The notes under the pieces: model-generated
Databases searched by the model: none
Told to the model about the DNA's origin: nothing
Seen by the model: the letters and a program-made list of their open reading frames with translations, nothing else
From: Escherichia coli
Lineage (GTDB): Bacteria; Pseudomonadota; Gammaproteobacteria; Enterobacterales; Enterobacteriaceae
NCBI RefSeq assembly: GCF_013315695.1
Contig: NZ_CP054353.1
Strand: one strand, 5' to 3'
Length of the DNA: 64,000 nt
Shown here: piece after piece, positions 11,891 to 40,813 of the stretch
Layout of the letters: every line of letters starts with the position of its first letter
How positions within the stretch are numbered: the first letter of the stretch is position 1
Made by a program: the position numbers and the translations under genes

Positions 11891-11965
11891 CAGATAATCC
11901 CCAAAGACCTTTCATCCTCTATTCTTAAAATAGCCCTGAGTCAGAAACTGTAATTGAGAACCACA

Positions 11966-15900: not shown

Positions 15901-16448
15901 GCTATTCCAACACCGGTGGTCAGGCGTCGAAAGCGACACCGCTGGGTGCAGTAACTAAGTTCGGCGAGCACGGCAAACGTAAAGCGCGTAAAGATCTTGG
16001 CGTCAGTATGATGATGTACGGTCATGTTTATGTGGCGCAGATTTCTCTCGGCGCGCAGCTGAACCAGACGGTGAAAGCGATTCAGGAAGCGGAAGCGTAT
16101 CCGGGACCATCGCTGATCATTGCTTATAGCCCGTGTGAAGAGCATGGTTACGATCTGGCTCTCAGCCACGACCAGATGCGCCAACTCACTGCTACCGGCT
16201 TCTGGCCGCTATATCGCTTCGATCCTCGTCGTGCCGATGAAGGCAAACTGCCGCTGGCGCTGGATTCACGCCCGCCGTCAGAAGCACTGGAAGAAACGTT
16301 ACTTCATGAGCAACGTTTCCGTCGTCTGAATTCGCAGCAGCCAGAAGTGGCAGAACAGTTATGGAAAGATGCTGCAGCTGATTTGCAAAAACGCTATGAC
16401 TTCCTGGCACAAATGGCCGGAAAAGCGGAAAAAAGCAACACCGATTAA
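12924..16448 (+). CDS. ydbK: Pyruvate:flavodoxin/ferredoxin oxidoreductase
   Basis: 1174-aa ORF with tandem 4Fe-4S ferredoxin motifs (CTQCNHCVAACP, CTGCNLCVEVCP) and a TPP-binding region; matches K-12 YdbK (Pfo) in length. Confidence 0.95.
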   Translation: MITIDGNGAVASVAFRTSEVIAIYPITPSSTMAEQADAWAGNGLKNVWGDTPRVVEMQSEAGAIATVHGALQTGALSTSFTSSQGLLLMIPTLYKLAGELTPFVLHVAARTVATHALSIFGDHSDVMAVRQTGCAMLCAANVQEVQDFALISHIATLKSRVPFIHFFDGFRTSHEINKIVPLADDTILDLMPQAEIDAHRARALNPEHPVIRGTSANPDTYFQSREATNPWYNAVYDHVEQAMNDFAAATGRQYQPFEYYGHPQAERVIILMGSAIGTCEEVVDELLTRGEKVGVLKVRLYRPFSAKHLLQALPGSVRSVAVLDRTKEPGAQAEPLYLDVMTALAEAFNNGERETLPRVIGGRYGLSSKEFGPDCVLAVFAELNAAKPKARFTVGIYDDVTNLSLPLPENTLPNSAKLEALFYGLGSDGSVSATKNNIKIIGNSTPWYAQGYFVYDSKKAGGLTVSHLRVSEQPIRSAYLISQADFVGCHQLQFIDKYQMAERLKPGGIFLLNTPYSADEVWSRLPQEVQAVLNQKKARFYVINAAKIARECGLAARINTVMQMAFFHLTQILPGDSALAELQGAIAKSYSSKGQDLVERNWQALALARESVEEVPLQPVNPHSANRPPVVSDAAPDFVKTVTAAMLAGLGDALPVSALPPDGTWPMGTTRWEKRNIAEEIPIWKEELCTQCNHCVAACPHSAIRAKVVPPEAMENAPASLHSLDVKSRDMRGQKYVLQVAPEDCTGCNLCVEVCPAKDRQDPEIKAINMMSRLEHVEEEKINYDFFLNLPEIDRSKLERIDIRTSQLITPLFEYSGACSGCGETPYIKLLTQLYGDRMLIANATGCSSIYGGNLPSTPYTTDANGRGPAWANSLFEDNAEFGLGFRLTVDQHRVRVLRLLDQFADKIPAELLTALKSDATPEIRREQVAALRQQLNDVAEAHELLRDADALVEKSIWLIGGDGWAYDIGFGGLDHVLSLTENVNILVLDTQCYSNTGGQASKATPLGAVTKFGEHGKRKARKDLGVSMMMYGHVYVAQISLGAQLNQTVKAIQEAEAYPGPSLIIAYSPCEEHGYDLALSHDQMRQLTATGFWPLYRFDPRRADEGKLPLALDSRPPSEALEETLLHEQRFRRLNSQQPEVAEQLWKDAAADLQKRYDFLAQMAGKAEKSNTD

Positions 16449-16476
16449 ATGCTCTGGATAAGGATCATCCAATTCT

Positions 16477-16581
16477 AAAAAAAAGCCCGGACGACGGTTC
16501 GGGCTTGTCTCATTATTTGTTGGATAAACAGTAACAAGGGTCCAACAGAAAATAATCTTTGTGACAATAAAGGCATATAAC
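16477..16581 (-). ncRNA. micC: MicC sRNA (Hfq-dependent repressor of ompC)
   Basis: Reverse complement reads GTTATATGCCTTTATTGTCAC... and ends in hairpin GCCCGAACCGTCGTCCGGGC plus T8; the 5-prime seed and terminator match MicC; lies between ydbK and ompN as in K-12. Confidence 0.8.
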
Positions 16582-16838
16582 CCGCGAAGAATAACGCATC
16601 ACTATTTAAATGTATAATTTTTATTTTGTATATGTCGCCAACAATATATTCACCAGACTTATTATCATTTCAGAAGAATTATTTGATTAAGGTTTTACTT
16701 AAGGCGTAACAAATAATATTTATCGTCTAACTGAACTTCTCCTTTAGGATGCTTTCACTCCCCGAAATGGGGATAAAAGGCAAGGTGATGCTGCCAACTT
16801 ACTGATTTAGTGTATGATGGTGTTTTTGAGGTGCTCCA

Positions 16839-17114
16839 GTGGCTTCTGTTTCTATCAGCTGTCCCTCCTGTTCAGCTACTGACGGGGTGGTGCGTAACGG
16901 CAAAAGCACCGCCGGACATCAGCGCTATCTCTGCTCTCACTGCCGTAAAACATGGCAACTGCAGTTCACTTACACCGCTTCTCAACCCGGTACGCACCAG
17001 AAAATCATTGATATGGCCATGAATGGCGTTGGATGCCGGGCAACAGCCCGCATTATGGGCGTTGGCCTCAACACGATTTTACGTCACTTAAAAAACTCAG
17101 GCCGCAGTCGGTAA
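16839..17114 (+). CDS. insA: IS1 InsA
   Basis: 91-aa ORF identical to the InsA of copy 1. Confidence 0.95.
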
Positions 17115-17536
17115 CCTCGCGCATACAGCCGGGCAGTGACGTCATCGTCTGCGCGGAAATGGACGAACAGTGGGGCTATGTCGGGGCTAAATCGCGCCAG
17201 CGCTGGCTGTTTTACGCGTATGACAGGCTCCGGAAGACGGTTGTTGCGCACGTATTCGGTGAACGCACTATGGCGACGCTGGGGCGTCTTATGAGCCTGC
17301 TGTCACCCTTTGACGTGGTGATATGGATGACGGATGGCTGGCCGCTGTATGAATCCCGCCTGAAGGGAAAGCTGCACGTAATCAGCAAGCGATATACGCA
17401 GCGAATTGAGCGGCATAACCTGAATCTGAGGCAGCACCTGGCACGGCTGGGACGGAAGTCGCTGTCGTTCTCAAAATCGGTGGAGCTGCATGACAAAGTC
17501 ATCGGGCATTATCTGAACATAAAACACTATCAATAA
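17033..17536 (+). CDS. insB: IS1 InsB frame
   Basis: 167-aa ORF identical to the InsB of copy 1. Confidence 0.9.
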
Positions 17537-17551
17537 GTTGGAGTCATTACC

Positions 17552-19107: not shown

Positions 19108-19161
19108 ATGTCGCAAAATCAAGAAATTAGTAAGAAAGAACAATACAACCTGAACAAGTAA
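19108..19161 (+). pseudogene. ttcC: ttcA-like 5-prime fragment marking the prophage attR
   Basis: ATG TCG CAA AAT CAA GAA ATT AGT AAG AAA GAA CAA TAC AAC CTG AAC AAG TAA encodes [17 protein letters not shown], a diverged copy of the TtcA N-terminus ([17 protein letters not shown]) at 33431. Confidence 0.7.
19132..19157. repeat. Prophage attachment core, right copy (26-bp direct repeat)
   Basis: aagaaagaacaatacaacctgaacaa, identical to 33455..33480 inside the ttcA start. Confidence 0.75.
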
Positions 19162-19257
19162 GGGCAAAAATCACAACTCTCTGACTCATAAGTATTTTAC
19201 TTATTTTTCAATGTGTTAAATATCATCAGCGACAACAATAAGCTACGATAACCCACT

Positions 19258-19310
19258 CTTTTTTTGCCCCTTTTTTGCCCCTTTTGCAGCGCTTTGCCCC
19301 ATTTTTGCCA
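19258..19310. repeat. Cluster of four TTTTGCC(CC) direct repeats
   Basis: tttttgcccc ttttttgcccc ttttgcagcgc tttgcccc atttttgcca; between attR and the sitA regulatory region. Confidence 0.4.
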
Positions 19311-19421
19311 TCAACAATTTTCCTCATCAAGTCATTTCAAAGCCTAATAGGTGCCCTACTTTTTTCCTCAGTACCACGTCGCCAGCAGGAAACAACCTAA
19401 TCCCGGTTCGGATCTAAAATT

Positions 19422-19440
19422 GCTAATGATAATCATTTTC
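19422..19440 (+). promoter_or_regulatory. Fur box upstream of sitA
   Basis: gctaatgataatcattttc matches the 19-bp Fur consensus GATAATGATAATCATTATC at 16/19 positions. Confidence 0.6.
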
Positions 19441-19462
19441 ATTTTGTATTGCTTATGCTATA

Positions 19463-19484
19463 AAACATAGCCGTTGCTATGTTT
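19463..19484 (+). promoter_or_regulatory. MntR operator upstream of sitA
   Basis: Perfect palindrome aaacatagc-cgtt-gctatgttt, the MntR-box architecture, 33 bp upstream of the sitA ATG. Confidence 0.7.
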
Positions 19485-19516
19485 GTTCTAATTTTGCTCA
19501 CTATAGGTACTAAATT

Positions 19517-20431
19517 ATGTACTCAATAAAAAAAGTAACCATGCTCTTGGGGTGCCTCGCCCTCACCTGCTCGATCGCATTTCAGGCGAGTGCAACTGAA
19601 AAATTCAAGGTCATTACAACATTTACCATCATCGCAGATATGGCCAAAAACGTGGCTGGAGATGCTGCAGAAGTCTCATCCATAACCAAGCCCGGTGCAG
19701 AAATTCATGAGTATCAGCCTACCCCTGGCGATATTAAACGTGCGCAGGAGGCACAACTGATTCTCGCCAATGGTATGAATCTGGAATTGTGGTTCCAACG
19801 CTTTTACCAGCATCTTAATGGGGTTCCAGAAGTAATTGTCTCTTCGGGTGTGACGCCAGTAGGGATCACTGAAGGCCCCTATGAGGGCAAACCTAACCCC
19901 CATGCCTGGATGTCGCCAGATAATGCTCTGATTTACGTCGATAATATTCGTGATGCGTTGATAAAATACGATCCGGCAAATGCACAAACCTACCAACGTA
20001 ATGCCGATACTTATAAAGCCAAGATTACCCAAACCCTTGCCCCCCTGCGTAAGCAGATTGCTGAACTCCCTGAGAATCAGCGATGGATGGTCACCAGTGA
20101 AGGGGCTTTTTCTTATCTCGCACGCGATTTGGGGCTAAAAGAGCTTTATCTGTGGCCGATTAATGCCGATCAACAAGGCACGCCGCAGCAGGTACGTAAG
20201 GTTGTTGATATGGTGAAGAAAAATCATATCCCGGCAGTCTTTAGCGAGAGTACGATTTCCGATAAACCAGCGCGTCAGGTTGCGCGTGAAACCGGCGCGC
20301 ACTACGGCGGTGTACTCTATGTCGATTCCCTGAGCACAGAAAACGGCCCGGTACCTACGTATATCGACCTTCTGAAGGTTACTACCAGTACGCTGGTACA
20401 GGGAATTAAAGCCGGGAAAAGGGAGAAATAA
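19517..20431 (+). CDS. sitA: Mn/Fe ABC transporter periplasmic substrate-binding protein SitA
   Basis: 304-aa ORF with signal peptide, cluster-9 metal-binding family (SitA/YfeA/MntC-like). Confidence 0.9.
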
Positions 20432-21258
20432 TGATGCAATCTGCGGGCATTGTCGTTAATGATGTTACTGTCACCTGGCGTAACGGGCACACAGCACTGC
20501 GCGATGCATCCTTCACAGTACCAAGTGGATCTATTGCCGCTCTGGTTGGGGTAAACGGTTCCGGAAAATCGACGTTGTTTAAAGCGATTATGGGATTTGT
20601 GCGTCTGACCAGCGGAAAGATATCTGTTCTGGGTATTCCCACGCGACAGGCGCTACAGAAAAACCTGGTTGCCTACGTCCCTCAGTCAGAAGAGGTTGAC
20701 TGGTCATTTCCTGTACTAGTGGAAGATGTGGTGATGATGGGCCGCTATGGGCACATGGGTATGTTGCGTATAGCCAAAAAGAGGGATCGTCAGATTGTCA
20801 CCGATGCGCTGGAACGTGTCGATATGGTGGATTTTCGCCATCGACAAATCGGCGAGCTTTCCGGTGGACAAAAGAAACGCGTCTTTCTGGCGAGAGCGAT
20901 TGCACAGCAGGGTGATGTGATCCTGCTGGATGAACCTTTTACCGGCGTTGATGTGAAAACCGAAGCGAAAATCATCAGCCTGTTGAGGGAGTTACGCGCG
21001 GAAGGCAAGACGATGCTTGTCTCAACGCACAATCTCGGCTCAGTCACGACATTTTGCGATTATACGGTCATGGTCAAAGGCACCGTCCTGGCAAGCGGGC
21101 CGACAGACACCACTTTTACAGCCGAGAACCTGGAGCTGGCTTTTAGCGGCGTACTGCGCCATGTCACACTTAACGCCTCGGAAGAAAGCATTATTACTGA
21201 CGATGAACACCCTTTTGTGGCACATCGACCGTCAGCGGTGCAGAGGGAAGCAAGATGA
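20431..21258 (+). CDS. sitB: Mn/Fe ABC transporter ATP-binding protein SitB
   Basis: 275-aa ORF with Walker [13 protein letters not shown] signature LSGGQKKR and Walker B ILLDEP. Confidence 0.9.
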
Positions 21259-22112
21259 ACGTGCTACTGGAACCCTTCAGCTATGAATATATGCTCAATG
21301 CGATGTGGGTCTCGGCGATGGTCGGCGGTCTCTGCGCTTTCCTGTCATGCTATCTGATGCTAAAAGGCTGGTCGCTGATTGGCGATGCGCTGTCGCACTC
21401 TATTGTCCCGGGTGTTGCGGGGGCATATATGCTGGGGCTTCCGTTTTCTCTGGGAGCCTTCTTTTCCGGCGGACTGGCAGCGGGCAGCATGCTGTTTCTT
21501 AACCAACGCACTCGCTTAAAAGAAGATGCCATCATCGGCCTGATCTTCTCCTCCTTTTTTGGCCTGGGGCTGTTTATGGTGTCATTGAACCCGACATCCG
21601 TGAACATTCAGACCATCGTCCTAGGCAATATTCTGGCAATCGATCCGGCGGATATCCTGCAACTCACTATCATTGGCATTCTCTCGATCATCGTGCTTTT
21701 TTTCAAATGGAAAGATCTTATGGTGACCTTTTTCGACGAGAATCACGCCCGTGCTATTGGATTGCATCCGGGCAGATTAAAAATCCTCTTCTTCACCCTG
21801 CTGTCGGTTTCGACCGTTGCGGCGCTGCAAACGGTTGGTGCCTTTCTGGTGATCTGTCTGGTGGTGACTCCCGGTGCAACAGCATGGTTGTTAACCGATC
21901 GTTTTCCCCGCCTGCTCATAATTGCTGTAACTATTGGCAGTGTAACCAGTTTCCTCGGCGCGTGGGTCAGTTACTTTCTGGACGGCGCGACAGGTGGAAT
22001 CATCGTGGTGGCGCAGACACTGCTGTTTCTTTTAGCATTTGTATTTGCGCCCACCCATGGGCTTTTGGCAAATCGTCGGCGTGCGCATAAAGCGCTGGAG
22101 GATCGCTCATGA
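21255..22112 (+). CDS. sitC: Mn/Fe ABC transporter permease SitC
   Basis: 285-aa polytopic membrane ORF; start overlaps the sitB stop. Confidence 0.9.
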
Positions 22113-22966
22113 TGGCATTATTACTGGAGCCACTGCAGTTCACCTTTATGAGTCACGCACTGCTGATTTCACTGGTAGTTTCCATACCCTGTGCGCTGCT
22201 GTCGGTCTTTCTGGTCCTGAAAGGTTGGGCACTGATGGGTGACGCGATGAGTCATGCGGTTTTTCCTGGCATCGTGCTTGCCTGGATTCTGGGGTTACCT
22301 CTGGCTACAGGGGCATTTATCGCCGGAGTATTCTGCGCGGTGGCGACGGGATACCTGAAAGACAACAGCCGAATCAAGCAAGATACAGTGATGGGGATTG
22401 TTTTTTCTGGCATGTTTGCCGCAGGTCTGATCTTGTATATTGCAGTCAAACCAGACATACATCTTGACCATATTCTTTTCGGCGACATGCTCGGGGTAAC
22501 CATCGGCGATATAATCCAGACGATGATTATTGCCGGGCTGGTTACACTTGTTATTAGCGTAAAATGGCGGGATTTTTTGCTGTTCAGCTTTGATTATCAA
22601 CAGGCGCAGGTAAGCGGTTTGCATACGCGATGGCTGCATTATGGGCTGCTGTGCATGGTTTCCCTGACCATTGTGGCGACGCTGAAAGCAGTAGGTATCA
22701 TTCTCTCCATTTCTCTGCTCATTGCGCCTGGCGCCATTGCGGTACTCCTGACACAACGCTTTCATATTGCACTCCTACTGGCGACTGGCATATCGGTAAT
22801 AGTCTCAATGACTGGTGTTTGGCTGTCCTTTTTTATCGACAGCGCACCCGCTCCGACGATTGTCGTCTTATTCGCGGTTGTGTTCATCATGACGTTTACC
22901 GTTATCAGTTTCAACGCACGCACAAAGGGAAACGCTCATAGACAGGATCTGTTATCCCCCAATTAG
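22109..22966 (+). CDS. sitD: Mn/Fe ABC transporter permease SitD
   Basis: 285-aa polytopic membrane ORF paralogous to SitC; start overlaps the sitC stop. Confidence 0.9.
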   Translation: MMALLLEPLQFTFMSHALLISLVVSIPCALLSVFLVLKGWALMGDAMSHAVFPGIVLAWILGLPLATGAFIAGVFCAVATGYLKDNSRIKQDTVMGIVFSGMFAAGLILYIAVKPDIHLDHILFGDMLGVTIGDIIQTMIIAGLVTLVISVKWRDFLLFSFDYQQAQVSGLHTRWLHYGLLCMVSLTIVATLKAVGIILSISLLIAPGAIAVLLTQRFHIALLLATGISVIVSMTGVWLSFFIDSAPAPTIVVLFAVVFIMTFTVISFNARTKGNAHRQDLLSPN

Positions 22967-23077
22967 CACAACATCCGAGGGCAGCATTGTCCGCTAGTAC
23001 ACTGCAGTCCAGAAAGTCATGGGCGGACGTTGGGAGGAGGCGCTAATCCTTTCATACAAAAAATATGTAAAATCAAT

Positions 23078-23150
23078 AACGGCTGTAAATCATTCAATAC
23101 TCGCACTATCGGAAGTTCACCAGCCAGCCGCAGCACGTTCTTGCATACGA
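23078..23150. repeat. Diverged direct repeat, left copy (3-prime end of a small membrane-protein gene plus downstream sequence)
   Basis: aatcattcaatactcgcactatcg matches 24557..24580 at 22/24; similarity continues through cttgcatacgacgtg. Reverse strand encodes ...LALSIVIGGLVKLKPQTRRMQERAAAGW* with no start codon. Confidence 0.5.
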
Positions 23151-23417
23151 CGTGTCTGCGGTTTCAACTTCACCAGTCCACCAATCACGATGGACAGTGC
23201 CAAGACAGCACTAGCAAAAACAGGAAATTAGCAGTCTCAGCAGAACACCGACCAGACGGTGAAGAAACAAAAAAGGATACGCAAAGGGGCCGCAGTTCCC
23301 GATTGATAAAAAAGCCAGCTTATGCGCTTTTTTTTCATGTATTATTAAGTATTGGTTAGCGTCTTTTTAATCAGAACTTTAAAGACAAGCCATTTGTAAG
23401 AAAACCGACAGATTCGG

Positions 23418-24233
23418 TTGACAAGCAGGAGTAATACTTTGGACATAAGAAAAGATTTGGAATCAGTAGCCCAATATATAAGTAGACTGTTATCGATAGG
23501 GTACGAATTTAGCCGTTTTGATAAAGACTGGGTCCATTTAAAAAATGAAGAGGATTTTCGTTTTATTTCAAGAATACCATTTGCAACACGGAATAAAGTG
23601 GAAGCAGTATATGCGGAAGGCAGAGATATGGCACTTTATATGTCTGATGAGTTACTATCCATTAATAGTGATTTCAGTAAATTTCCAACGTTGACAGCTA
23701 TTATCGAAAGATTCAAGGACACTTGGGTTTATGGTAATTATGATTCGGAAGTGCCAAATATAGCTAAAAAAACATGCGAAGAAAATGCAGTTCAGCTTTG
23801 GTCTGTAGAACAGATGTGTTCCTTATTCAAAAAGCAAGAACAACTATTAGCAGCAGTACGTATCACATTGCAGATGCTACAAGATAGTGACCTATACAAG
23901 ATGGAGAATGGTTTACCTCTTATGAAACAAGAAGCTAATATTCATGTCAGTGGAATTTCCGGTTCTAGTATCAATATACATTCTTCAGGTGCTACGGCAA
24001 CTACTACGACAAATTATAATGAGCCCACAATATTTAATGAAATGATTGAGGCAATAAAATCGAAAAACTTTGATGGCGCGACAGAATCACACCTTATAGA
24101 TAATGTACAGGCACTGGCAGCCAGTCACCAAAGCGGCTGTTTTAAAGAAGCATATAAGGACTTTATTAATAATGTATCTGCACACATTACAGTATTTACT
24201 CCATTTCTTGCTGGCATATCATCTTTACTATAA
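23418..24233 (+). CDS. Orphan hypothetical protein in AT-rich islet (function unknown)
   Basis: 271-aa ORF from the track; no in-frame ATG near the 5-prime end, likely start TTG at 23439 with AGGAG 8 nt upstream; AT-rich codon usage unlike flanking genes; C-terminal low-complexity Ser/Thr stretch and hydrophobic tail. Confidence 0.5.
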   Translation: MTSRSNTLDIRKDLESVAQYISRLLSIGYEFSRFDKDWVHLKNEEDFRFISRIPFATRNKVEAVYAEGRDMALYMSDELLSINSDFSKFPTLTAIIERFKDTWVYGNYDSEVPNIAKKTCEENAVQLWSVEQMCSLFKKQEQLLAAVRITLQMLQDSDLYKMENGLPLMKQEANIHVSGISGSSINIHSSGATATTTTNYNEPTIFNEMIEAIKSKNFDGATESHLIDNVQALAASHQSGCFKEAYKDFINNVSAHITVFTPFLAGISSLL

Positions 24234-24556
24234 AATAAGTGACAGATACATTAATACATAACGAAAAATCTTTTTAGCTACTCATTCATATCAATAGTGC
24301 CCTACCATAGGGCACATTATTCGTGGAACTCGTTTATGACAAAAGAATTTTGATGGTCTGCCTGATGCAACAGATATAATTCTGGGAGTGTTGAGTAAGA
24401 GTATTCACCGGCGCTCAACACAAATGCCAGCAAGCACGAGAAAGAGCAGGTAAGCCTGAGTGTTCAGGAAATGTTTGAAAAGGCTAATATGTGGCTGGTT
24501 TCAGATTAAACGCCTTGAACCGTCATATTACTTAAGTACAATCCGCCTAGACTAGC

Positions 24557-24630
24557 AATCATTCAATAGTAGCACTATCGAGCGCTCGCCAGTCGAGCGC
24601 AATCATGCTCCTTGCATACGGCGTGCAGCA
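24557..24630. repeat. Diverged direct repeat, right copy
   Basis: aatcattcaatagtagcactatcg ... cttgcatacggcgtg; partner of 23078..23150. Confidence 0.5.
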
Positions 24631-24778
24631 TATCACAAAACGATTACGCCATGACGGACTGCAGGCTACTCAATATCTGGCTCGATTAGCGTATTGGCAT
24701 GATTTAACAGACCCCGGCGCTTATTCCCAGCAACCTGAAGCGGCACCTCTTCCTGTGTTGCGTTTACAACTCCCTTTT

Positions 24779-25072
24779 TCACCCACGATTAACCAACAGC
24801 CAGACCAGCAGACAAGCCACCACCGGCACAGAAAAATCCATCAGGCTTGCCACATCCCACACGCGCGGATCAAAACCACCCCACCACGGCATATTCATAC
24901 GCTTGCCATGCCCGAACATTTCAATCCAGCGATATTCTGCCTGGGTATGTTCACGAGCAATGAAGAACGTACAACCGGCTATCGCCCCGTAAGCCCAGTT
25001 TCCGGTAAAAAGACCAACCAGTACCTGCGCAGCCACAGCACAAAGTGCATGAAGGAAAGGTGTTATATCCAT
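24779..25072 (-). CDS. Small hydrophobic (probable inner-membrane) protein, function unknown
   Basis: ORF track 24779..25087; ATG at 25070-25072 preceded by AGGA; MDITPFLHALCAVAAQVLVGLF... with about three predicted TM segments; its C-terminus is homologous to the fragment encoded by the left direct repeat. Confidence 0.5.
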   Translation of the reverse strand: MDITPFLHALCAVAAQVLVGLFTGNWAYGAIAGCTFFIAREHTQAEYRWIEMFGHGKRMNMPWWGGFDPRVWDVASLMDFSVPVVACLLVWLLVNRG

Positions 25073-25148
25073 TTTCATCCTACCCAATAAAACGAGGCGC
25101 TCGGCCCCTTAATATTATTTAGACGCAAGCGTCGGTAATGACTCCAAC

Positions 25149-25652
25149 TTATTGATAGTGTTTTATGTTCAGATAATGCCCGATGACTTTGTCATGCAGC
25201 TCCACCGATTTTGAGAACGACAGCGACTTCCGTCCCAGCCGTGCCAGGTGCTGCCTCAGATTCAGGTTATGCCGCTCAATTCGCTGCGTATATCGCTTGC
25301 TGATTACGTGCAGCTTTCCCTTCAGGCGGGATTCATACAGCGGCCAGCCATCCGTCATCCATATCACCACGTCAAAGGGTGACAGCAGGCTCATAAGACG
25401 CCCCAGCGTCGCCATAGTGCGTTCACCGAATACGTGCGCAACAACCGTCTTCCGGAGCCTGTCATACGCGTAAAACAGCCAGCGCTGGCGCGATTTAGCC
25501 CCGACATAGCCCCACTGTTCGTCCATTTCCGCGCAGACGATGACGTCACTGCCCGGCTGTATGCGCGAGGTTACCGACTGCGGCCTGAGTTTTTTAAGTG
25601 ACGTAAAATCGTGTTGAGGCCAACGCCCATAATGCGGGCTGTTGCCCGGCAT
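25149..25652 (-). CDS. insB: IS1 InsB frame
   Basis: 167-aa ORF identical to the other InsB copies. Confidence 0.9.
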
Positions 25653-25846
25653 CCAACGCCATTCATGGCCATATCAATGATTTTCTGGTGCGTACCGGGT
25701 TGAGAAGCGGTGTAAGTGAACTGCAGTTGCCATGTTTTACGGCAGTGAGAGCAGAGATAGCGCTGATGTCCGGCGGTGCTTTTGCCGTTACGCACCACCC
25801 CGTCAGTAGCTGAACAGGAGGGACAGCTGATAGAAACAGAAGCCAC
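25571..25846 (-). CDS. insA: IS1 InsA
   Basis: 91-aa ORF identical to the other InsA copies. Confidence 0.95.
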
Positions 25847-25925
25847 TGGAGCACCTCAAAAACACCATCATACACTAAATCAGTAAGTTGGCAGCATCAC
25901 CCCCGGCGTTAAGGGGAGAGATAAG

Positions 25926-26060
25926 ATGGTGCATTACGAAGTAGTTCAGTATTTGATGGATTGTTGCGGTATCACTTACAACCAGGCTGTGCAGGCTTTA
26001 CGCAGCAACGCCTGGGATCTCTGGCAGGCAGAAGTCGCTATACGTAGCAACAAGATGTGA
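25926..26060 (+). CDS. ydaG: Rac-prophage small protein (YdaG-like, 44 aa)
   Basis: Below the ORF-track cutoff; ATG 25926 to TGA 26058-26060 encodes MVHYEVVQYLMDCCGITYNQAVQALRSNAWDLWQAEVAIRSNKM; assigned by size and position next to sieB. Confidence 0.5.
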   Translation: MVHYEVVQYLMDCCGITYNQAVQALRSNAWDLWQAEVAIRSNKM

Positions 26061-26070
26061 GATTCGCAAA

Positions 26071-26226
26071 ATGCAAAAAATCGACCTCGGCAACAACGAA
26101 TCCCTGGTGTGCGGCGTGTTCCCCAACCAGGATGGAACGTTCACTGCCATGACGTATACCAAAAGCAAAACATTTAAAACCGAAACTGGTGCGCGCCGAT
26201 GGTTGGAGAAGCACACAGTAAGCTAA
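26071..26226 (+). CDS. ydaF: Rac-prophage small protein (YdaF-like, 51 aa)
   Basis: Below the ORF-track cutoff; ATG 26071 to TAA 26224-26226 encodes MQKIDLGNNESLVCGVFPNQDGTFTAMTYTKSKTFKTETGARRWLEKHTVS; convergent with sieB. Confidence 0.5.
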   Translation: MQKIDLGNNESLVCGVFPNQDGTFTAMTYTKSKTFKTETGARRWLEKHTVS

Positions 26227-26711
26227 CGATTAAAACGTCTACTCCTGCTGTTCCAGAATAACTTCATAAAATGGGAGTATTTTTCGGTGACGAGATAATA
26301 AGAACAGTTTGCGCTATCACTCTGATGTTGAATGATGCCCTTCCGTTCTAATTTTTTCATAACCGGGTTACGGCAAGGAGAAGTGATAATAAGATTTCCT
26401 GTTTTAAGGAAATCTTTAAATACAGCGATTTCTTTCTCAGATAAACGAAGCAATACTCGTTGCTCTGGTAGTAATGAATAATGCTTTTGAATATGTGCTC
26501 GCAATCTTGAGAAGGAAATGGCGACCACGAAAGAAAAGGCAAAAACGATAATCTGAAAGAGCCAAGGTATTTCAGTATAAGCATTGAATGCGACAGTAAA
26601 CTCTTTCGGTATCAGCCAGAGAGTGAGACCAAAAATGATAATCGTATACATAAGTCTTTCGAGTGGCTCGTTAGCAAAAAGTTTCAATAATGGAGTAGAT
26701 ACATCCAACAT
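26223..26711 (-). CDS. sieB: Superinfection exclusion protein B
   Basis: ORF track 26223..26834; ATG at 26709-26711 gives MLDVSTPLLKLFANEPLERLMYTIIIFGLTLWLIP... (162 aa) with two TM helices. Confidence 0.85.
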   Translation of the reverse strand: MLDVSTPLLKLFANEPLERLMYTIIIFGLTLWLIPKEFTVAFNAYTEIPWLFQIIVFAFSFVVAISFSRLRAHIQKHYSLLPEQRVLLRLSEKEIAVFKDFLKTGNLIITSPCRNPVMKKLERKGIIQHQSDSANCSYYLVTEKYSHFMKLFWNSRSRRFNR

Positions 26712-27151
26712 ATCAATAACTCTCAACTGTAAGGGTATTGAAATGTTAACACAAGCTCTCGCTGTAGGGGTATAGCCGAGACCACCGAAGCCCGGAGGTG
26801 GTGAAATAAAACCGGGCACAACACGAAGGCGCATTTCCGATATCCATAAAGAGTCGGTCTTGTCTGTTAAATTTAAATGGTGGGAGTGCGCCTCCGGTTG
26901 TAAATAACGACATTGCTGTGTGTAGTCCTGGCGGCATCAGTTTTTTCTTGAAGTTCGGCTGATGTCCGCCCTTTTTTAAGTGAATTTTGTGATGCGGTGA
27001 ATGCGGCTAAGCGCACGTGGCACAGTTAAAAGTCATGTTAGTCCTTATTGGTTTGGGTGGGAAAGCCGACTGTAATTGTTAACTGGTTGCAGTCACCTGG
27101 AGGCACCAGGCACCGCATCAACAAAGTTCATTTGTAAAAATGGAGATAATT

Positions 27152-27373
27152 ATGATTGCACATCACTTCGGAACTGATGAAATACCACGTCAGTGTGTGA
27201 CTCCTGGCGATTATGTTCTTCATGAAGGCCGGACATATATTGCCTCGGCAAACAATATTAAAAAGCGAAAACTATATATTCGTAACCTGACCACAAAAAC
27301 ATGCATTACTGACCGCATGATTAAAGTCTTCCTCGGTCGTGATGGTTTACCTGTAAAGGCGGAGTCATGGTGA
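27152..27373 (+). CDS. kilR: Rac-prophage killing protein KilR (FtsZ inhibitor)
   Basis: ORF track 27140..27373; ATG at 27152 after GGAG gives [42 protein letters not shown]... (73 aa). Confidence 0.9.
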
Positions 27374-27543
27374 TGACTAAGAAAATAAAATGTGCTTACC
27401 ACCTTTGCAAAAAAGACGTTGAAGAAAGCAAAGCTATTGAAAGAATGCTTCACTTCATGCACGGGATTTTATCAAAAGACGAACCGAGAAAATATTGCAG
27501 TGAATCTTGTGCCGAAAAAGACCAGATGGCACATGAACTTTAA
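27373..27543 (+). CDS. ydaE: Rac-prophage small zinc-binding protein YdaE
   Basis: Below the ORF-track cutoff; ATG overlaps the kilR TGA (TGATG); [56 protein letters not shown] (56 aa) with a Cys-rich motif. Confidence 0.7.
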   Translation: MTKKIKCAYHLCKKDVEESKAIERMLHFMHGILSKDEPRKYCSESCAEKDQMAHEL

Positions 27544-27617
27544 TTAATTGACTATTCGAAACTGAATTTATGCCAGAAATGGCAGGTATTCGCTCAACCT
27601 TAATTAAGGAGAAAAAC

Positions 27618-27893
27618 ATGATTACCAATTATGAAGCCACTGTTGTAACTACCGATGACATTGTTCACGAGGTGAATCTGGAAGGAAAGCGCATTGGCTA
27701 CGTAATTAAAACAGAAAATAAAGAAACCCCATTCACTGTGGTTGATATCGATGGTCCATCAGGCAACGTAAAAACACTTGATGAAGGTGTCAAAAAAATG
27801 TGCCTGGTGCATATCGGAAAGAATCTGCCCGCAGAAAAAAAAGCCGAATTTCTGGCAACTCTAATTGCAATGAAATTAAAAGGTGAAATCTGA
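27618..27893 (+). CDS. racC: Rac-prophage protein RacC
   Basis: ORF track 27570..27893; ATG at 27618 gives MITNYEATVVTTDDIVHEVNLEGKRIGYVIKTENKETPF... (91 aa). Confidence 0.85.
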   Translation: MITNYEATVVTTDDIVHEVNLEGKRIGYVIKTENKETPFTVVDIDGPSGNVKTLDEGVKKMCLVHIGKNLPAEKKAEFLATLIAMKLKGEI

Positions 27894-27994
27894 AAGAAAT
27901 AGCCTGCGTATGGCGCAGGCTATGAACAGTGTGTATCCGGCAAGATCATTCACTGAACAAAACGAATTTTAATCTGAGTTGAGGTTAAAAAACA

Positions 27995-30595
27995 ATGAGC
28001 ACAAAACCACTCTTCCTGTTACGGAAAGCGAAAAAATCATCCGGTGAACCTGACGTCGTCCTGTGGGCAAGCAACGATTTTGAATCGACCTGTGCCACTC
28101 TGGACTACCTGATCGTTAAGTCAGGTAAAAAACTGAGCAGCTATTTTAAAGCTGTTGCCACGAATTTTCCTGTCGTTAATGACCTGCCCGCTGAAGGTGA
28201 GATCGATTTTACCTGGAGTGAACGCTATCAACTCAGCAAAGACTCCATGACATGGGAACTAAAACCGGGAGCAGCACCAGACAACGCTCACTATCAAGGC
28301 AATACCAACGTCAACGGCGAAGACATGACTGAGATTGAGGAGAATATGCTACTCCCAATTTCTGGCCAGGAACTGCCCATTCGTTGGCTTGCTCAACACG
28401 GCAGCGAAAAACCGGTAACGCACGTTTCACGCGACGGACTCCAGGCATTACACATTGCTCGGGCTGAAGAACTACCGGCTGTTACTGCCCTGGCTGTTTC
28501 CCACAAAACCAGCCTGCTCGACCCGCTGGAAATTCGCGAACTCCACAAACTGGTTCGTGACACTGACAAAGTTTTCCCTAATCCTGGTAATTCAAACCTG
28601 GGACTGATAACTGCTTTTTTCGAAGCATACCTGAACGCTGACTACACCGATCGAGGACTGCTGACAAAAGAGTGGATGAAGGGTAATCGTGTTTCACACA
28701 TCACTCGCACGGCTTCCGGTGCTAATGCTGGCGGCGGAAACCTCACCGATCGCGGCGAAGGTTTCGTACACGATCTGACGTCACTGGCGCGCGACGTAGC
28801 CACTGGCGTACTGGCCCGTTCAATGGATCTGGACATCTATAACCTTCATCCGGCACACGCTAAACGCATTGAGGAAATTATCGCTGAAAATAAACCGCCC
28901 TTTTCTGTTTTCCGCGACAAATTCATCACCATGCCTGGCGGGCTGGATTATTCCCGCGCCATCGTGGTTGCGTCCGTAAAAGAAGCACCAATTGGGATCG
29001 AGGTCATCCCCGCGCACGTCACTGAATATCTGAACAAAGTACTGACTGAAACCGATCATGCCAACCCTGATCCGGAAATCGTGGATATTGCCTGCGGTCG
29101 CTCCTCTGCCCCGATGCCGCAGCGAGTAACAGAAGAAGGAAAACAGGATGATGAAGAAAAACCGCAACCATCTGGAACAACGGCAGTTGAACAGGGAGAG
29201 GCTGAAACAATGGAACCGGACGCAACTGAACATCATCAGGACACGCAGCCGCTGGATGCTCAGTCACAGGTAAATTCTATTGATGCGAAATATCAGGAAC
29301 TGCGGGCAGAACTCCATGAAGCCCGGAAAAACATTCCATCAAAAGATCCTGTCGATGCCGATAAATTGCTTGCTGCATCACGTGGTGAATTTGTTGACGG
29401 AATTAGCGACCCGAACGATCCGAAATGGGTAAAGGGGATCCAGACTCGCGATTGTGTGTACCAGAACCAGCCAGAAACGGAAAAAACCAGCCCGGATATG
29501 AATCAACCTGAGCCAGTAGTGCAACAGGAACCGGAAATAGCCTGCAATGCCTGCGGCCAGACTGGCGGGGATAACTGCCCTGACTGTGGTGCGGTGATGG
29601 GCGACGCAACATACCAGGAAACATTCGATGAAGAGAGTCAGGTTGAAGCTAAGGAAAATGATCCGGAGGAAATGGAAGGCGCTGAACATCCGCACAATGA
29701 GAATGCTGGCAGCGATCCGCATCGCGATTGCAGTGATGAAACTGGCGAAGTCGCAGATCCCGTAATCGTAGAAGACATAGAGCCAGGTATTTATTACGGA
29801 ATTTCGAATGAGAATTACCACGCGGGTCCCGGTGTCAGTAAGTCTCAGCTCGATGACATTGCTGATACTCCGGCACTATATTTGTGGCGTAAAAATGCCC
29901 CCGTTGACACCACAAAGACAAAAACGCTCGATTTAGGAACCGCTTTCCACTGCCGGGTACTTGAACCGGAAGAATTCAGTAACCGCTTTATCGTAGCACC
30001 TGAATTTAACCGCCGTACAAACGCCGGAAAAGAAGAAGAGAAAGCGTTTCTGATGGAATGCGCAAGCACAGGAAAAACAGTTATCACTGCGGAAGAAGGC
30101 CGGAAAATTGAACTCATGTATCAAAGCGTTATGGCTTTGCCGCTGGGGCAATGGCTTGTTGAAAGCGCCGGACACGCTGAATCATCAATTTACTGGGAAG
30201 ATCCTGAAACAGGAATTTTGTGTCGGTGCCGTCCGGACAAAATTATCCCTGAATTTCACTGGATCATGGACGTGAAAACTACGGCGGATATTCAACGATT
30301 CAAAACCGCTTATTACGACTACCGCTATCACGTTCAGGATGCATTCTACAGTGACGGTTATGAAGCACAGTTTGGAGTGCAGCCAACTTTCGTTTTTCTG
30401 GTTGCCAGCACAACTATTGAATGCGGACGTTATCCGGTTGAAATTTTCATGATGGGCGAAGAAGCAAAACTGGCAGGTCAACAGGAATATCACCGCAATC
30501 TGCGAACCCTGTCTGACTGCCTGAATACCGATGAATGGCCAGCTATTAAGACATTATCACTGCCCCGCTGGGCTAAGGAATATGCAAATGACTAA
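27995..30595 (+). CDS. recE: Exodeoxyribonuclease VIII (RecE)
   Basis: 866-aa [44 protein letters not shown]...; full length with the C-terminal nuclease domain; overlaps the recT start by 8 nt. Confidence 0.95.
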
Positions 30596-31397
30596 GCAAC
30601 CACCAATCGCAAAAGCCGATCTGCAAAAAACTCAGGGAAACCGTGCACCAGCAGCAGTTAAAAATAGCGACGTGATTAGTTTTATTAACCAGCCATCAAT
30701 GAAAGAGCAACTGGCAGCAGCTCTTCCACGCCATATGACGGCTGAACGTATGATCCGTATCGCCACCACAGAAATTCGTAAAGTTCCGGCGTTAGGAAAC
30801 TGTGACACTATGAGTTTTGTCAGTGCGATCGTACAGTGTTCACAGCTCGGACTTGAGCCAGGTAGCGCCCTCGGTCATGCATATTTACTGCCTTTTGGTA
30901 ATAAAAACGAAAAGAGCGGTAAAAAGAACGTTCAGCTAATCATTGGCTATCGCGGCATGATTGATCTGGCTCGCCGTTCTGGTCAAATCGCCAGCCTGTC
31001 AGCCCGTGTTGTCCGTGAAGGTGACGAGTTTAGCTTCGAATTTGGCCTTGATGAAAAGTTAATACACCGCCCGGGAGAAAACGAAGATGCCCCGGTTACC
31101 CACGTCTATGCTGTCGCAAGACTGAAAGACGGAGGTACTCAGTTTGAAGTTATGACGCGCAAACAGATTGAGCTGGTGCGCAGCCTGAGTAAAGCTGGTA
31201 ATAACGGGCCGTGGGTAACTCACTGGGAAGAAATGGCAAAGAAAACGGCTATTCGTCGCCTGTTCAAATATCTGCCCGTATCAATTGAGATCCAGCGTGC
31301 AGTATCAATGGATGAAAAGGAACCACTGACAATCGATCCTGCAGATTCCTCTGTATTAACCGGGGAATACAGTGTAATCGATAATTCAGAGGAATAA
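30588..31397 (+). CDS. recT: Single-strand annealing recombinase RecT
   Basis: ORF track 30531..31397; ATG at 30588 gives [35 protein letters not shown]... (269 aa). Confidence 0.95.
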
Positions 31398-31453
31398 TTC
31401 AGCCTGGCGGTGTAATGCACCGCCAACTTGAAATATTTTTTATGAGAAAAATT

Positions 31454-31648
31454 ATGAGATATGACAATGTTAAACCATGTCCATTTTGTGGTTGTCCATC
31501 AGTAACGGTGAAAGTCATTTCAGGATATTACCGAGCGAAGTGTAACGGATGCGAATCCCGAACCGGTTATGGTGGAAGTGAAAAAGAAGCACTCGAAAGA
31601 TGGAATAAACGAACCACTGGAAATAATAACGGAGGTGTTCATGTATAA
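31454..31648 (+). CDS. ralR: Restriction-alleviation protein / type I toxin RalR (Lar)
   Basis: ORF track 31415..31648; ATG at 31454 gives MRYDNVKPCPFCGCPSVTVKVISGYYRAKCNGCESRTGYGG... (64 aa). Confidence 0.85.
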   Translation: MRYDNVKPCPFCGCPSVTVKVISGYYRAKCNGCESRTGYGGSEKEALERWNKRTTGNNNGGVHV

Positions 31649-31829
31649 AATTACCGCCACTATTGAAAAGGAAGGTGGCACTCCTACTAACTGGACAAGA
31701 TATTCAAAATCTAAACTAACGAAATCAGAATGCGAAAAAATGCTCTCAGGTAAAAAAGAAGCAGGCGTTTCCAGAGAGCAGAAAGTAAAACTGATAAATT
31801 TTAATTGCGAGAAACTTCAGTCCTCGTGA
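31641..31829 (+). CDS. ydaC: Rac-prophage protein YdaC
   Basis: ORF track 31569..31829; ATG at 31641 (GGAGG upstream) gives MYKITATIEKEGGTPTNWTRYSKSKL... (62 aa); overlaps the ralR 3-prime end by 8 nt. Confidence 0.7.
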   Translation: MYKITATIEKEGGTPTNWTRYSKSKLTKSECEKMLSGKKEAGVSREQKVKLINFNCEKLQSS

Positions 31830-31928
31830 ATTGCATTGTATTCAAATTAAAACTTCATAGCTGATTATTAATAATCAACATCGGGCGTCAATTTCAGTCT
31901 AACATTGGCGCCTGCCAGAGGTGATGCG

Positions 31929-32144
31929 ATGGCACAAGTAATCTTTAATGAAGAGTGGATGGTTGAATACGGCCTGATGCTTCGCACTGGTCTGGGGGCC
32001 AGACAAATTGAAGCATACCGCCAGAACTGTTGGGTGGAGGGCTTCCACTTCAAACGAGTATCTCCTTTAGGTAAGCCAGACAGCAAACGAGGGATTATCT
32101 GGTACAACTATCCAAAGATAAATCAGTTTATCAAAGACTCATGA
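31929..32144 (+). CDS. xisR: Rac-prophage excisionase
   Basis: ORF track 31905..32144; ATG at 31929 gives [44 protein letters not shown]... (71 aa); stop overlaps the intR start region. Confidence 0.8.
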
Positions 32145-32145
32145 T

Positions 32146-33379
32146 ATGTCTAAATTACCAACAGGTGTCGAGATTAGAGGTAGATACATTCGCATCTGGT
32201 TCATGTTTCGAGGAAAACGATGTCGGGAAACATTAAAAGGCTGGGAGATTACAAACAGTAATATTAAAAAGGCCGGAAATTTAAGAGCGCTGATAGTTCA
32301 TGAAATAAACTCCGGTAAATTTGAGTATTTAAGACGTTTTCCCCAGTCCAGCACTGGGGCAAAAATGGTGATAACGAGAGTCATAAAAACGTTCGGAGAG
32401 CTTTGTGATATCTGGACAAAAATTAAAGAGACAGAGTTAACAACAAACACAATAAAGAAAACGAAATCACAATTAAAAACACTCAGAATAATAATTTGTG
32501 AAAGTACCCTGATATCACATATTCGTTATAGCGATATCTTAAACTACCGGAATGAACTGCTGCATGGAGAAACGCTTTACCTGGATAATCCAAGATCCAA
32601 CAAAAAAGGAAGAACCGTGCGCACAGTTGATAACTATATCGCCCTGCTCTGTTCGCTGTTACGTTTTGCGTATCAGTCGGGATTTATATCAACCAAACCA
32701 TTTGAAGGAGAAAAAATTACAGCGAAACAGAATAAAGCCTGATCCGTTATCTAAAACAGAATTCAATGCATTAATGGAAAGTGAAAAAGGACAGAGCCAG
32801 AACATGTGGAAATTTGCAGTTTACTCAGGACTTCGTCACGGGGAACTGGCAGCTCTGGCGTGGGAGGATGTGGATCTCGAAAAGGGAATAGTGAATGTCA
32901 GAAGAAACCTGACGATACTTGATATGTTCGGTCCCCCAAAAACAAATGCCGGGATCCGGACAGTAACACTACTGCAGCCTGCTCTTGAAGCACTGAAGGA
33001 GCAATACAAACTGACCGGGCATCATCGCAAAAGCGAAATCACCTTTTATCATCGGGAGTACGGCAGAACCGAAAAGCAAAAACTGCATTTTGTTTTCATG
33101 CCCAGGGTGTGTAACGGAAAACAAAAACCTTATTACTCGGTAAGCAGTTTGGGGGCAAGGTGGAATGCAGCAGTAAAACGTGCTGGTATTCGCCGCCGTA
33201 ATCCGTACCATACGCGGCATACTTTTGCCTGCTGGCTGTTGACGGCAGGAGCGAACCCGGCATTTATAGCCAGCCAAATGGGGCATGAAACTGCGCAGAT
33301 GGTGTATGAAATTTACGGTATGTGGATTGATGACATGAACGACGAACAGATAGCCATGTTGAATGCGCGGTTATCATAG
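32146..33379 (+). pseudogene. intR: Rac-prophage tyrosine integrase, apparently split by a +/-1 frameshift near 32709-32716
   Basis: ORF 32146..32742 (198 aa, ...STKPFEGEKITAKQNKA*) and ORF 32552..33379 carry the N- and C-terminal parts (catalytic ...HTRHTFACWLL...) in adjacent frames; frames switch in the run gagaaaaaatt; the sum of the parts is about 411 codons. Confidence 0.7.
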
Positions 33380-36128: not shown

Positions 36129-36250
36129 AAAAAAAAGCCGACTCATCAAAGTCGGCGTCGTACGAATCAATTGTGCTATGCAGTAATTCAAAAAAGGAAG
36201 TAAGACAATATGGAGCGCAACGCCCATCGCTTGACGTTGCATTCACCTGC
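36129..36250 (-). ncRNA. fnrS: FnrS sRNA (FNR-activated, Hfq-dependent)
   Basis: Reverse complement starts GCAGGTGAATGCAACGTCAAGCGATGGGCG... and ends in hairpin GCCGACTTTGATGAGTCGGC plus T8; 122 nt; lies between zntB and dbpA as in K-12. Confidence 0.8.
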
Positions 36251-38836: not shown

Positions 38837-39400
38837 TCAACGACTGCGCTTAGCGTGGCGCTCCCAGTTTTCTTGCTTTGCCTGTGCCGTTTTACGTAGT
38901 GCGACGTAACACGCCCCGCTGCCGCCATGATGCGGTAGCGCGGTACAATATGCCTGGACATCATCAAATTCGGTCAACCAGCGCGCCACATAGCTGCGGA
39001 CAATATTGGCATGTGATTTATCTTCCCGCCCTTTACCATGAATAATCAGCACATTACGCAAACCATCCGCCAGGGCTTGTTGAATGAAACTGAACACCAT
39101 TTTGCGGCACTCTTCCACCGGCTGGCGCAAAAGATTCAGGCTCGCCTGTTGCGGATATTTACCACTGCGCAGCTTATCCAGCACCCCATGTTGCAACCCT
39201 TCCCGCCGAAACTCCAGCGGCTGAGTTAGCGGGATGATGTCGAGAAATCCAGTGGTGAGGAAATTATCAAGTTGCAGCGTGTCGATACGCTGCGGCGCAC
39301 GTTGGTTACGCGTGGGATGCCAGTGGACATCTGTAGCATGTTTCAGCGGCTGGACATCTTCCATGGCGTCAAGAAACAGCGATTTGTCGTCAAGGTTCAT
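38837..39400 (-). CDS. smrA: Smr-domain DNA endonuclease SmrA
   Basis: 187-aa ORF with C-terminal Smr domain (...LIIHGKGREDKSHANIVRSYVARWL...). Confidence 0.9.
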   Translation of the reverse strand: MNLDDKSLFLDAMEDVQPLKHATDVHWHPTRNQRAPQRIDTLQLDNFLTTGFLDIIPLTQPLEFRREGLQHGVLDKLRSGKYPQQASLNLLRQPVEECRKMVFSFIQQALADGLRNVLIIHGKGREDKSHANIVRSYVARWLTEFDDVQAYCTALPHHGGSGACYVALRKTAQAKQENWERHAKRSR

Positions 39401-39627
39401 GTTACATCCTCCCGCAATTAAGAGCGCGATATGATAACCAGACCGGGCTGGTCCAACAACGTATTACCCAAATTTCCAGTAATAAGTTCCAAATGTTGCC
39501 GATATTTTAAGCAAAATGCTTATGCATGATTATTCATTCACTATATTAATAATGTAACTTATATTTTCGTGAAATCTGTCACTGAAGAAAATTGGCAACT
39601 AAAGGTTAAAACCGTTATAACACAGTC

Positions 39628-39722
39628 ACCGGCGCAGAGGAGACCATGCCGGATTTAAGACGCGGATGCACTGCTGTGTGTACTGTAGAGTCTGGCGGAT
39701 GTCGACAGACTCTATTTTTTTA
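39628..39722 (+). ncRNA. mcaS: McaS (IsrA) sRNA
   Basis: ACCGGCGCAGAGGAGACCATGCCGGATTTAAGACGCGGATGCACTGCTGTGTGTACTGTAGAGTCTGGCGGATGTCGACAGACTCTATTTTTTT; matches McaS and its terminator; lies between smrA and abgR as in K-12. Confidence 0.8.
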
Positions 39723-39729
39723 TGCAGTT

Positions 39730-40638
39730 TTAACTTTGCAGATAGCCGCATTCTCGCCGAAATTGCGTGATTAATGACGCGGTCAGTGGTGTCTGGCGAC
39801 TATCACGCCGCTGAATCAAATAATAGGTCGCTTTCGGTAAAATTTCGCTAACCGGCAACATCACCAGCCCCTGTCCGTGCAAGGGATCGCAGCCCATTTC
39901 TTCAGGTAGTATGCTGAGAAAATCGCTTTTTGCCACCAGACTGATACAGGCTGAGAACGTCTCGCAGACTACGCCGACCTGTGGCGTTTGCGCCTGCTCG
40001 TCAAGCAATTCACTCAACTGTTTGTAGTAGCTGCCGTGTGGCGTCGGCATTGTCCAGCTGTAGTCCAGTAACTGTTTGATCGAACGGGCACCAATGGCGG
40101 GATGTCCCGGGCGGCAAAAGATCGCGAATTGCTTTTCCAGTAATTTCTCAAAAGTAAATTCGTGGTCGTAGGGTCCCTGATAATAGGTATTGATGGTGAA
40201 ATCCAGTTCTCCCTGGCGCAATTCATTAATCATCGACACCAGTTGCCCTTCCATAATGCGTACTTTTACCTGTGGATGCTGCTGATGAAAACGAGATATG
40301 ACAGCTGGCATCAGACTGCGGGAAATACTGGCCCCCATGCCGATATTAATTTGCCCTGCCAGTTGCCCTTGTCGTTGGCGAATATCCTCTTGCGCTGCGC
40401 GCAGCTCTTCAAGAATAAGACTGGCGTGCTGATAAAAACTTTCACCGGCATCAGTTAACGTCACGCCTTTACTACGGCGAAAAAAGAGTTGCGCCGCTAA
40501 CCCTTCTTCCAGCTCCTGAATAGATTTACTCAGTGCCGGTTGCGACATATTCAACATTCGGCTCGCTCCGCGAATGCTGCCCTGACGAGCCACTTCAACA
40601 AAAGCCCGAATTTGATGAATTTTTACCTGAAAAGCCAT
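39730..40638 (-). CDS. abgR: LysR-family regulator of the abg operon
   Basis: 302-aa ORF with N-terminal helix-turn-helix; divergent from abgA. Confidence 0.9.
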   Translation of the reverse strand: MAFQVKIHQIRAFVEVARQGSIRGASRMLNMSQPALSKSIQELEEGLAAQLFFRRSKGVTLTDAGESFYQHASLILEELRAAQEDIRQRQGQLAGQINIGMGASISRSLMPAVISRFHQQHPQVKVRIMEGQLVSMINELRQGELDFTINTYYQGPYDHEFTFEKLLEKQFAIFCRPGHPAIGARSIKQLLDYSWTMPTPHGSYYKQLSELLDEQAQTPQVGVVCETFSACISLVAKSDFLSILPEEMGCDPLHGQGLVMLPVSEILPKATYYLIQRRDSRQTPLTASLITQFRRECGYLQS

Positions 40639-40813
40639 GACGCCACCGATAACCGTTATTTATCAGACCAAAGAAACTGGCATCTACTTTAATGCAGATG
40701 ATTGTGTCAGGGTAATTTATGAACGGTTAAAACTGTGAAAAATCAGTTAGTGATAAGTAAAAACTATCGCTACGTGAACCGGGTCACACTTTTTACTGAT
40801 GACGGGAAAGGTT

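Follow-up and report, generated by a model that had tools for sequence, protein, structure and literature searches.

The McaS small RNA locus between smrA and abgR in an Escherichia coli strain close to MSB1_4I, and its minor allele at nucleotide 18

The analyzed window, a stretch of 64,000 nucleotides of Escherichia coli DNA (contig NZ_CP054353.1), carries on its plus strand a short intergenic element flanked by smrA (ydaL) and abgR and convergent with the latter. Judging from the open reading frames and the RefSeq annotation of near-identical strains, dgcM lies upstream of this locus and the genes abgA-abgB-abgT lie downstream. An earlier note on this DNA had placed the small RNA McaS between smrA and abgR, and this placement holds: gene order and orientation are as in K-12, the arrangement as a whole being reversed relative to NC_000913.3. 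The window is closely similar to the genome of E. coli MSB1_4I (NZ_LR898874.1), with 100% identity over positions 11962-17551 and 99.996% identity over positions 17552-40950. The features of the locus are as follows.

38837-39400, minus strand: smrA (ydaL), from open reading frames and the RefSeq annotation of near-identical strains
39568-39583, plus strand: CRP-like site CGTGAAATCTGTCACT, from a pattern search, with 2 outer mismatches to TGTGA-N6-TCACA
39592-39597, plus strand: -35 hexamer TTGGCA, 5 of 6 bases matching the consensus, read from the sequence
39616-39621, plus strand: -10 hexamer TATAAC, 5 of 6 bases matching the consensus, read from the sequence
39628-39722, plus strand: McaS (IsrA/IS061) small RNA gene, from Rfam RF00115 and identity to K-12 b4426
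39629-39652, plus strand: stem-loop 1 (RNA nt 2-25), whose 12-nt loop holds the 5'-most GGA, from the Rfam consensus structure
39639-39641, plus strand: GGA motif 1 (nt 12-14), a candidate CsrA contact, from the sequence
39645, plus strand: sole difference from K-12 (C for A at RNA nt 18), in the loop of stem-loop 1, from the alignment
39651-39653, plus strand: GGA motif 2 (nt 24-26), from the sequence, not conserved in all homologues from other species
39660-39679, plus strand: stem-loop 2 (nt 33-52)
39662-39683, plus strand: csgD-pairing region (nt 35-56), from a predicted duplex, overlapping stem-loop 2
39664-39666, plus strand: GGA motif 3 (nt 37-39), from the sequence, invariant in 13 homologues
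39685-39721, plus strand: intrinsic terminator, from folding, consisting of a hairpin (nt 58-88, 39685-39715) and seven U (39715-39721)
39697-39699, plus strand: GGA motif 4 (nt 70-72) in the terminator loop, from the sequence, invariant in 13 homologues
39730-40638, minus strand: abgR, from open reading frames and the RefSeq annotation of near-identical strains

The whole window was searched against Rfam 15 with cmscan at gathering thresholds, and 4 small RNA matches were obtained, McaS among them. The McaS family model, RF00115, matched at 39628-39723 on the plus strand with 117.0 bits (E 3.9e-21; gathering score (GA) of the family, 42 bits). This match, which is far beyond chance, covers model positions 1-96 of 96 and is not truncated. 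Read directly, the plus strand at 39628-39722 is ACCGGCGCAGAGGAGACCATGCCGGATTTAAGACGCGGATGCACTGCTGTGTGTACTGTAGAGTCTGGCGGATGTCGACAGACTCTATTTTTTTA. The curated K-12 MG1655 ncRNA mcaS (b4426; NC_000913.3, 1405658-1405751; 94 nt) aligns with its first base at 39628 and its last at 39721, and 95 of 96 nucleotides are identical, the one mismatch being C instead of A at RNA nt 18, corresponding to window position 39645. Over 360 bp around the gene, the alignment to K-12 contains six differences, of which one is within the RNA. Both the family model and the alignment to the reference, with its shared start base, bear out the identification of the element as McaS in the earlier note. The proposed start at 39628 on the plus strand stands as well, whereas the proposed end, 39722, is one base past the K-12 annotation, an immaterial difference that still falls inside the Rfam model. 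Almost certainly, the element is the mcaS gene on the chromosome of an E. coli strain very closely related to MSB1_4I, and comparison of the sequences identifies it as an already known gene with a common minor allele.

The mcaS feature is missing from the automatic RefSeq annotation of the strains examined. The other three small RNAs matched in the window, FnrS, MicC and RalA, likewise have no feature in the automatic RefSeq annotations of three strains examined, MSB1_4I included; among the records studied, mcaS and fnrS are annotated solely in the curated K-12 record. Recognizing McaS here fills an annotation gap and is otherwise of little consequence. FnrS (36133-36250, minus strand; RF01796, 134.8 bits versus GA 60) occupies its usual place, between zntB and ynaL/dbpA. 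MicC (16469-16584, minus strand; 104 bits versus GA 90) is located 200 bp from an IS1 copy (16784-17551) that lies between MicC and ompN. Beside this IS1 (junction 17552), 362 bp are missing compared with MSB1_4I; since the loss removes about the first 328 nt of ompN, this gene appears to be 5'-truncated in the present strain. Altogether, the window carries three identical IS1 copies (6598-7365, 16784-17551 and 25134-25901), the first of which replaces a ydbD-pdxI-paaY segment found in strain 2016C-3878. RalA, the antitoxin small RNA of ralR (31647-31825, minus strand; 225 bits), is located inside a Rac-type prophage remnant of 14.2 kb (19157-33379) between uspF and ttcA, which carries sitABCD (an iron/manganese transporter), sieB, kilR, racC, recE, recT, ralR, xisR and intR, the last annotated as frameshifted in MSB1_4I. 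Just 5 of the 5,426 complete E. coli genomes covered at least 80% of this remnant in one place.

Upstream of the RNA, the promoter elements are arranged as TTGGCA, 18 nt, TATAAC and 6 nt before A39628 (+1). Both hexamers are identical to those of K-12 and are invariant in six divergent E. coli alleles, while neighboring intergenic bases vary; furthermore, the TATAA core of the -10 element is kept in homologues of the Escherichia and C. amalonaticus types. A consensus promoter and terminator scanner did not find the McaS promoter, because the scanner requires T at position 6 of the -10 element and the hexamer here ends in C.

The CRP-like site CGTGAAATCTGTCACT is centered at about -52.5 from the McaS start site. 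This is neither the class I nor the class II textbook position for CRP. In the pattern search, matches to the CRP consensus were not enriched in the window (17 found versus 27.8 expected); the best of them, CGTGAACCGGGTCACA, with 1 mismatch, lies elsewhere, at 40773-40788 in the divergent abgR-abgA intergenic region. The site upstream of mcaS is identical to that of K-12, invariant in the six E. coli alleles and largely kept in E. albertii, E. whittamii and Citrobacter. Its conservation agrees with the reported activation of McaS by cAMP-CRP (PMC3634460). From this conservation and the literature we infer that CGTGAAATCTGTCACT may be the site used by CRP, and we word this cautiously because consensus matches are unenriched and the center is not at a textbook distance.

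At its 3' end, the element closes with a hairpin (-15.8 kcal/mol, z = -4.57) and then the U7 tract, in line with the earlier note, which had included a terminator in the gene. Across homologues, the terminator varies only by changes of U:G to U:A and of A:U to G:U. The consensus scanner did not find it, probably owing to a 1x1 internal loop in the stem that its stem rule disallows, and the terminator was confirmed by folding. The U-tail of such a terminator is, in addition, the 3' end to which Hfq is expected to bind.

Only 8 nt separate the abgR stop codon (39730-39732, minus strand) from the last U of the tract, and the palindrome folds on the minus strand as well (-15.9 kcal/mol), as would be expected if the hairpin and U-tract did no more than mark the 3' end of the convergent abgR, or formed a structural element between genes, with no independent gene. 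On the minus strand, however, the hairpin is followed by ACAGUACAC instead of a U-tract, and the terminator therefore serves the plus strand rather than abgR. Moreover, a conserved plus-strand promoter lies upstream at the proper spacing, the roughly 57 nt preceding the hairpin show conservation across genera, the unit as a whole scores as McaS, and ST131-type genomes keep the element despite deletion of abgR. Given the wrong orientation of the U-tract and the persistence of the element without abgR, we rejected the explanation that the hairpin only ends abgR, to which we give hardly any credence.

The RNA bounded by this promoter and terminator contains four GGA motifs (beginning at nt 12, 24, 37 and 70), equal to the number published for McaS, which is reported to bind two CsrA in vitro and to co-purify with CsrA (PMC10729762). 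According to the same source, the 5'-most GGA is important for CsrA binding and enhanced csgD repression. When isolated, the 5' end of the RNA folds as stem-loop 1 with -8.4 kcal/mol. Pairing with target leaders was evaluated by a 22-nt sliding scan, which superseded whole-molecule RNAduplex runs against the csgD and flhD leaders that had yielded unrealistic end-to-end duplexes; the K-12 csgD sequence was used, csgD of the present strain lying outside the window. The scan predicted a duplex of -33.6 kcal/mol between McaS nt 35-56 and positions -97 to -72 of the csgD 5'UTR, equal for both alleles at nt 18, and yielded only weak and ambiguous sites in the flhD leader.

A 42-codon open reading frame on the plus strand (39646-39774), with its AUG inside the McaS RNA, was also listed, and a Shine-Dalgarno-like GAGGAG precedes this AUG by 3-4 nt, as though the locus encoded a small protein. 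However, the frame crosses the terminator and ends 52 nt past the RNA 3' end, so the transcript would lack a stop codon; the examined alleles of B2-type E. coli and homologues from other species have AGG, AUA or other sequences where the AUG would be; and the GGAG in front of it is the conserved CsrA-type GGA motif. With a transcript that has no stop codon and a start codon that is not conserved, the small-protein explanation was rejected, its probability being negligible, and the RNA gene mcaS is retained as the identity of the locus.

Natural variation of the gene was surveyed in 5,426 complete E. coli genomes. A recognizable McaS copy was present in 5,304 genomes and a McaS match was absent from 122; in E. 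coli A10, the McaS-abgR region is replaced by a gene for a SEFIR-domain protein and an IS3 element. The exact K-12 allele was found in 2,250 genomes and the exact 96-nt allele of the window in 362 (about 6.7%). When six divergent E. coli alleles were aligned, the differences within the RNA clustered at nt 6-20, and one change each was seen at nt 27, 36 and 82. The mismatch to the reference thus lies within natural variation, the C18 allele being shared unchanged by 362 genomes and C at nt 18 being present in B2-type alleles as well. Accordingly, the alignments mark C18 as natural variation because it falls in the 5' third of the RNA, which is variable between alleles and species.

Ten further McaS copies were identified by a pattern scan covering one genome per species, in E. 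albertii, E. whittamii, other Escherichia, Citrobacter amalonaticus, Pseudescherichia vulneris and an Enterobacteriaceae MAG, all of them scoring above the Rfam threshold (75-109 bits). In the resulting alignment of 13 homologues, nt ~37-94, and likewise nt 43-96, are essentially invariant and the 5' third is highly variable, although the invariance of the 3' part is partly a matter of ascertainment, since the search pattern fixed 26 bases there; the 11 free positions are also invariant. High variability of the 5' third has been reported (PMC4824073). Per-sequence folding showed that most homologues keep a 5' hairpin with another stem (CCGGC/GCCGG versus CCCG/CGGG) and a GGA in or near its loop. 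Stem 1 was missed by RNAalifold on the MAFFT alignment of the 13 homologues, a consequence of misalignment of the 5' third across genera. The conserved 3' part offered no base pair with both partners changed; as this part is invariant, covariation is neutral on stems 2 and 3.

The 5' third is a polymorphic hot spot, and the one difference between the window and MSB1_4I in 23.4 kb falls there. Across the 23,399 aligned bases (17552-40950), the single differing base is 39633, that is, McaS nt 6 in stem 1, where the window has C as in K-12 and MSB1_4I has T, which replaces a C-G pair by U-G; some B2-type alleles have T here too. The location of this difference inside McaS could be a coincidence, with a probability of about 0.4% for a random site, or could reflect a mutational or selective hot spot.

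In the predicted folding of the RNA, the C18 allele departs from K-12. The minimum free energy structure of the window allele is an alternative long-range fold of -33.1 kcal/mol, compared with -30.2 kcal/mol for the Rfam three-hairpin structure. In the partition function, the pair probability of stem 1 is 0.24 with C18 versus 0.87 in K-12, and the probability that the 5'-most GGA is unpaired is 0.44 versus 0.86. For the csgD core, mean accessibility is little affected (0.34 versus 0.42). The three-hairpin structure remains compatible with the window allele, in which the terminator is a robust feature and folding of the isolated 5' end yields stem 1. That C18 would favor an alternative fold hiding the 5'-most GGA is a mildly new point to come from this modeling.

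These numbers raise an explanation in which the gene, although McaS in origin, yields a functionally altered C18 RNA, with weaker or re-balanced CsrA titration and target choice: a C18-G41 pair would stabilize a fold between the 5' third and the central part, hiding GGA motif 1 and part of the csgD-pairing region. The predicted preference for the alternative fold, the lower probability of stem 1 and the reduced exposure of the first GGA all point in this direction, as does the reported importance of the 5'-most GGA for CsrA binding (PMC10729762). Nevertheless, the prediction is purely one of equilibrium, with a gap of about 3 kcal/mol, and stem-loop 1, being transcribed first, would form co-transcriptionally; Hfq and CsrA remodel McaS in vivo; the allele persists unchanged in the 362 genomes; B2-type alleles with C at the same position have stem 1 predicted as fully formed; and the csgD core is nearly unaltered in accessibility. 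We therefore regard a functionally altered RNA as unlikely. Quantitatively, the behavior of C18 McaS might still differ from that of the K-12 RNA. A more specific version, slightly less probable again, is that C18 is a natural tuning variant, in which masking of the first GGA by the long-range fold would lessen the capture of CsrA and change the weight of base pairing (csgD, flhD) relative to the sponge function (pgaABCD). If so, the allele would contribute to biofilm differences between strains.

For the preferred reading, a known McaS gene with a minor natural allele, we infer that the RNA is expressed and acts as the K-12 RNA does, because the mapped elements are all present and the substitution falls in the loop of the naturally variable stem-loop 1. 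The published mechanism should then apply, given the near-identity of the two RNAs. The sigma-70-type promoter, with the CRP-like site upstream, would start transcription at A39628, and the strong hairpin with its U7 tract would end it at ~39721, giving an RNA of 94-95 nt. By the K-12 literature, to which the 95 of 96 shared nucleotides link the present gene, this RNA would depend on Hfq and be induced by cAMP-CRP at low nutrients. Its central, invariant part (nt ~35-56) would pair with the csgD 5'UTR and bring about endonucleolytic cleavage, shutting down curli; both the direct pairing of McaS with csgD and the cleavage have been published (PMC6061853, PMC3634460), and the cleavage directed to an upstream A/U-rich region of the leader is reported as the main repressive effect on curli (PMC6061853). 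Pairing with two regions of the flhD 5'UTR would open an inhibitory structure and raise flagellar expression, consistent with the description of McaS as an Hfq-dependent small RNA of the CRP regulon that pairs with two flhD leader regions and activates flagellar synthesis (PMC3634460). Binding of CsrA by the GGA motifs would relieve CsrA repression of pgaABCD (PGA polysaccharide), in agreement with the reported titration of CsrA through GGA motifs and activation of pgaA (PMC10729762). McaS is furthermore reported to bind the RNA polymerase core via stem 2 (PMC4824073). The strain has an intact copy of this characterized regulator, through which nutrient status, signaled by cAMP-CRP, bears on whether cells opt for motility, curli or PGA biofilm.

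Compared with McaS/IsrA/IS061 of K-12 (b4426, RF00115), the window gene has the same locus, start base, promoter and terminator, four GGA motifs and csgD-pairing core, and differs in carrying, in place of A18, a minority natural allele that in silico favors the alternative fold. McaS of B2/ST131-type E. coli, E. albertii, E. whittamii, C. amalonaticus and P. vulneris shares the invariant part from nt ~37 to the terminator, a 5' hairpin in most cases, a GGA near nt 11-12 in all and a score above the Rfam threshold, but has many changes in the 5' third, with both sides of the stem altered, and some of these RNAs are without the second GGA. The surroundings differ as well, as seen in two ST131-type and two other B2-type genomes: in B2-type E. 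coli, genes for an AraC-family regulator and an HlyD-family protein and a frameshifted MFS efflux gene lie between smrA and McaS, and ST131-type genomes are without abgR-abgA-abgB, with an abgT fragment alone left, while McaS and its promoter are kept and the 5' third has strongly diverged.

Among unrelated RNAs, CsrB and CsrC share with McaS the GGA motifs that bind and titrate CsrA (PMC10729762). They have 22 and 14 such motifs, respectively, act as sponges only and bear no sequence relationship to McaS, whereas McaS, with four GGA and two CsrA bound, adds Hfq-dependent base pairing. RprA, OmrA/B, GcvB, RydC and RybB are, like McaS, Hfq small RNAs that converge on the long csgD 5'UTR, and RprA and GcvB also induce the upstream csgD cleavage seen with McaS (PMC6061853), but these RNAs are encoded by unrelated genes and respond to other inducing signals. 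Among the small RNAs targeting csgD, additional reports of flhDC activation and CsrA titration single out McaS (PMC3634460).
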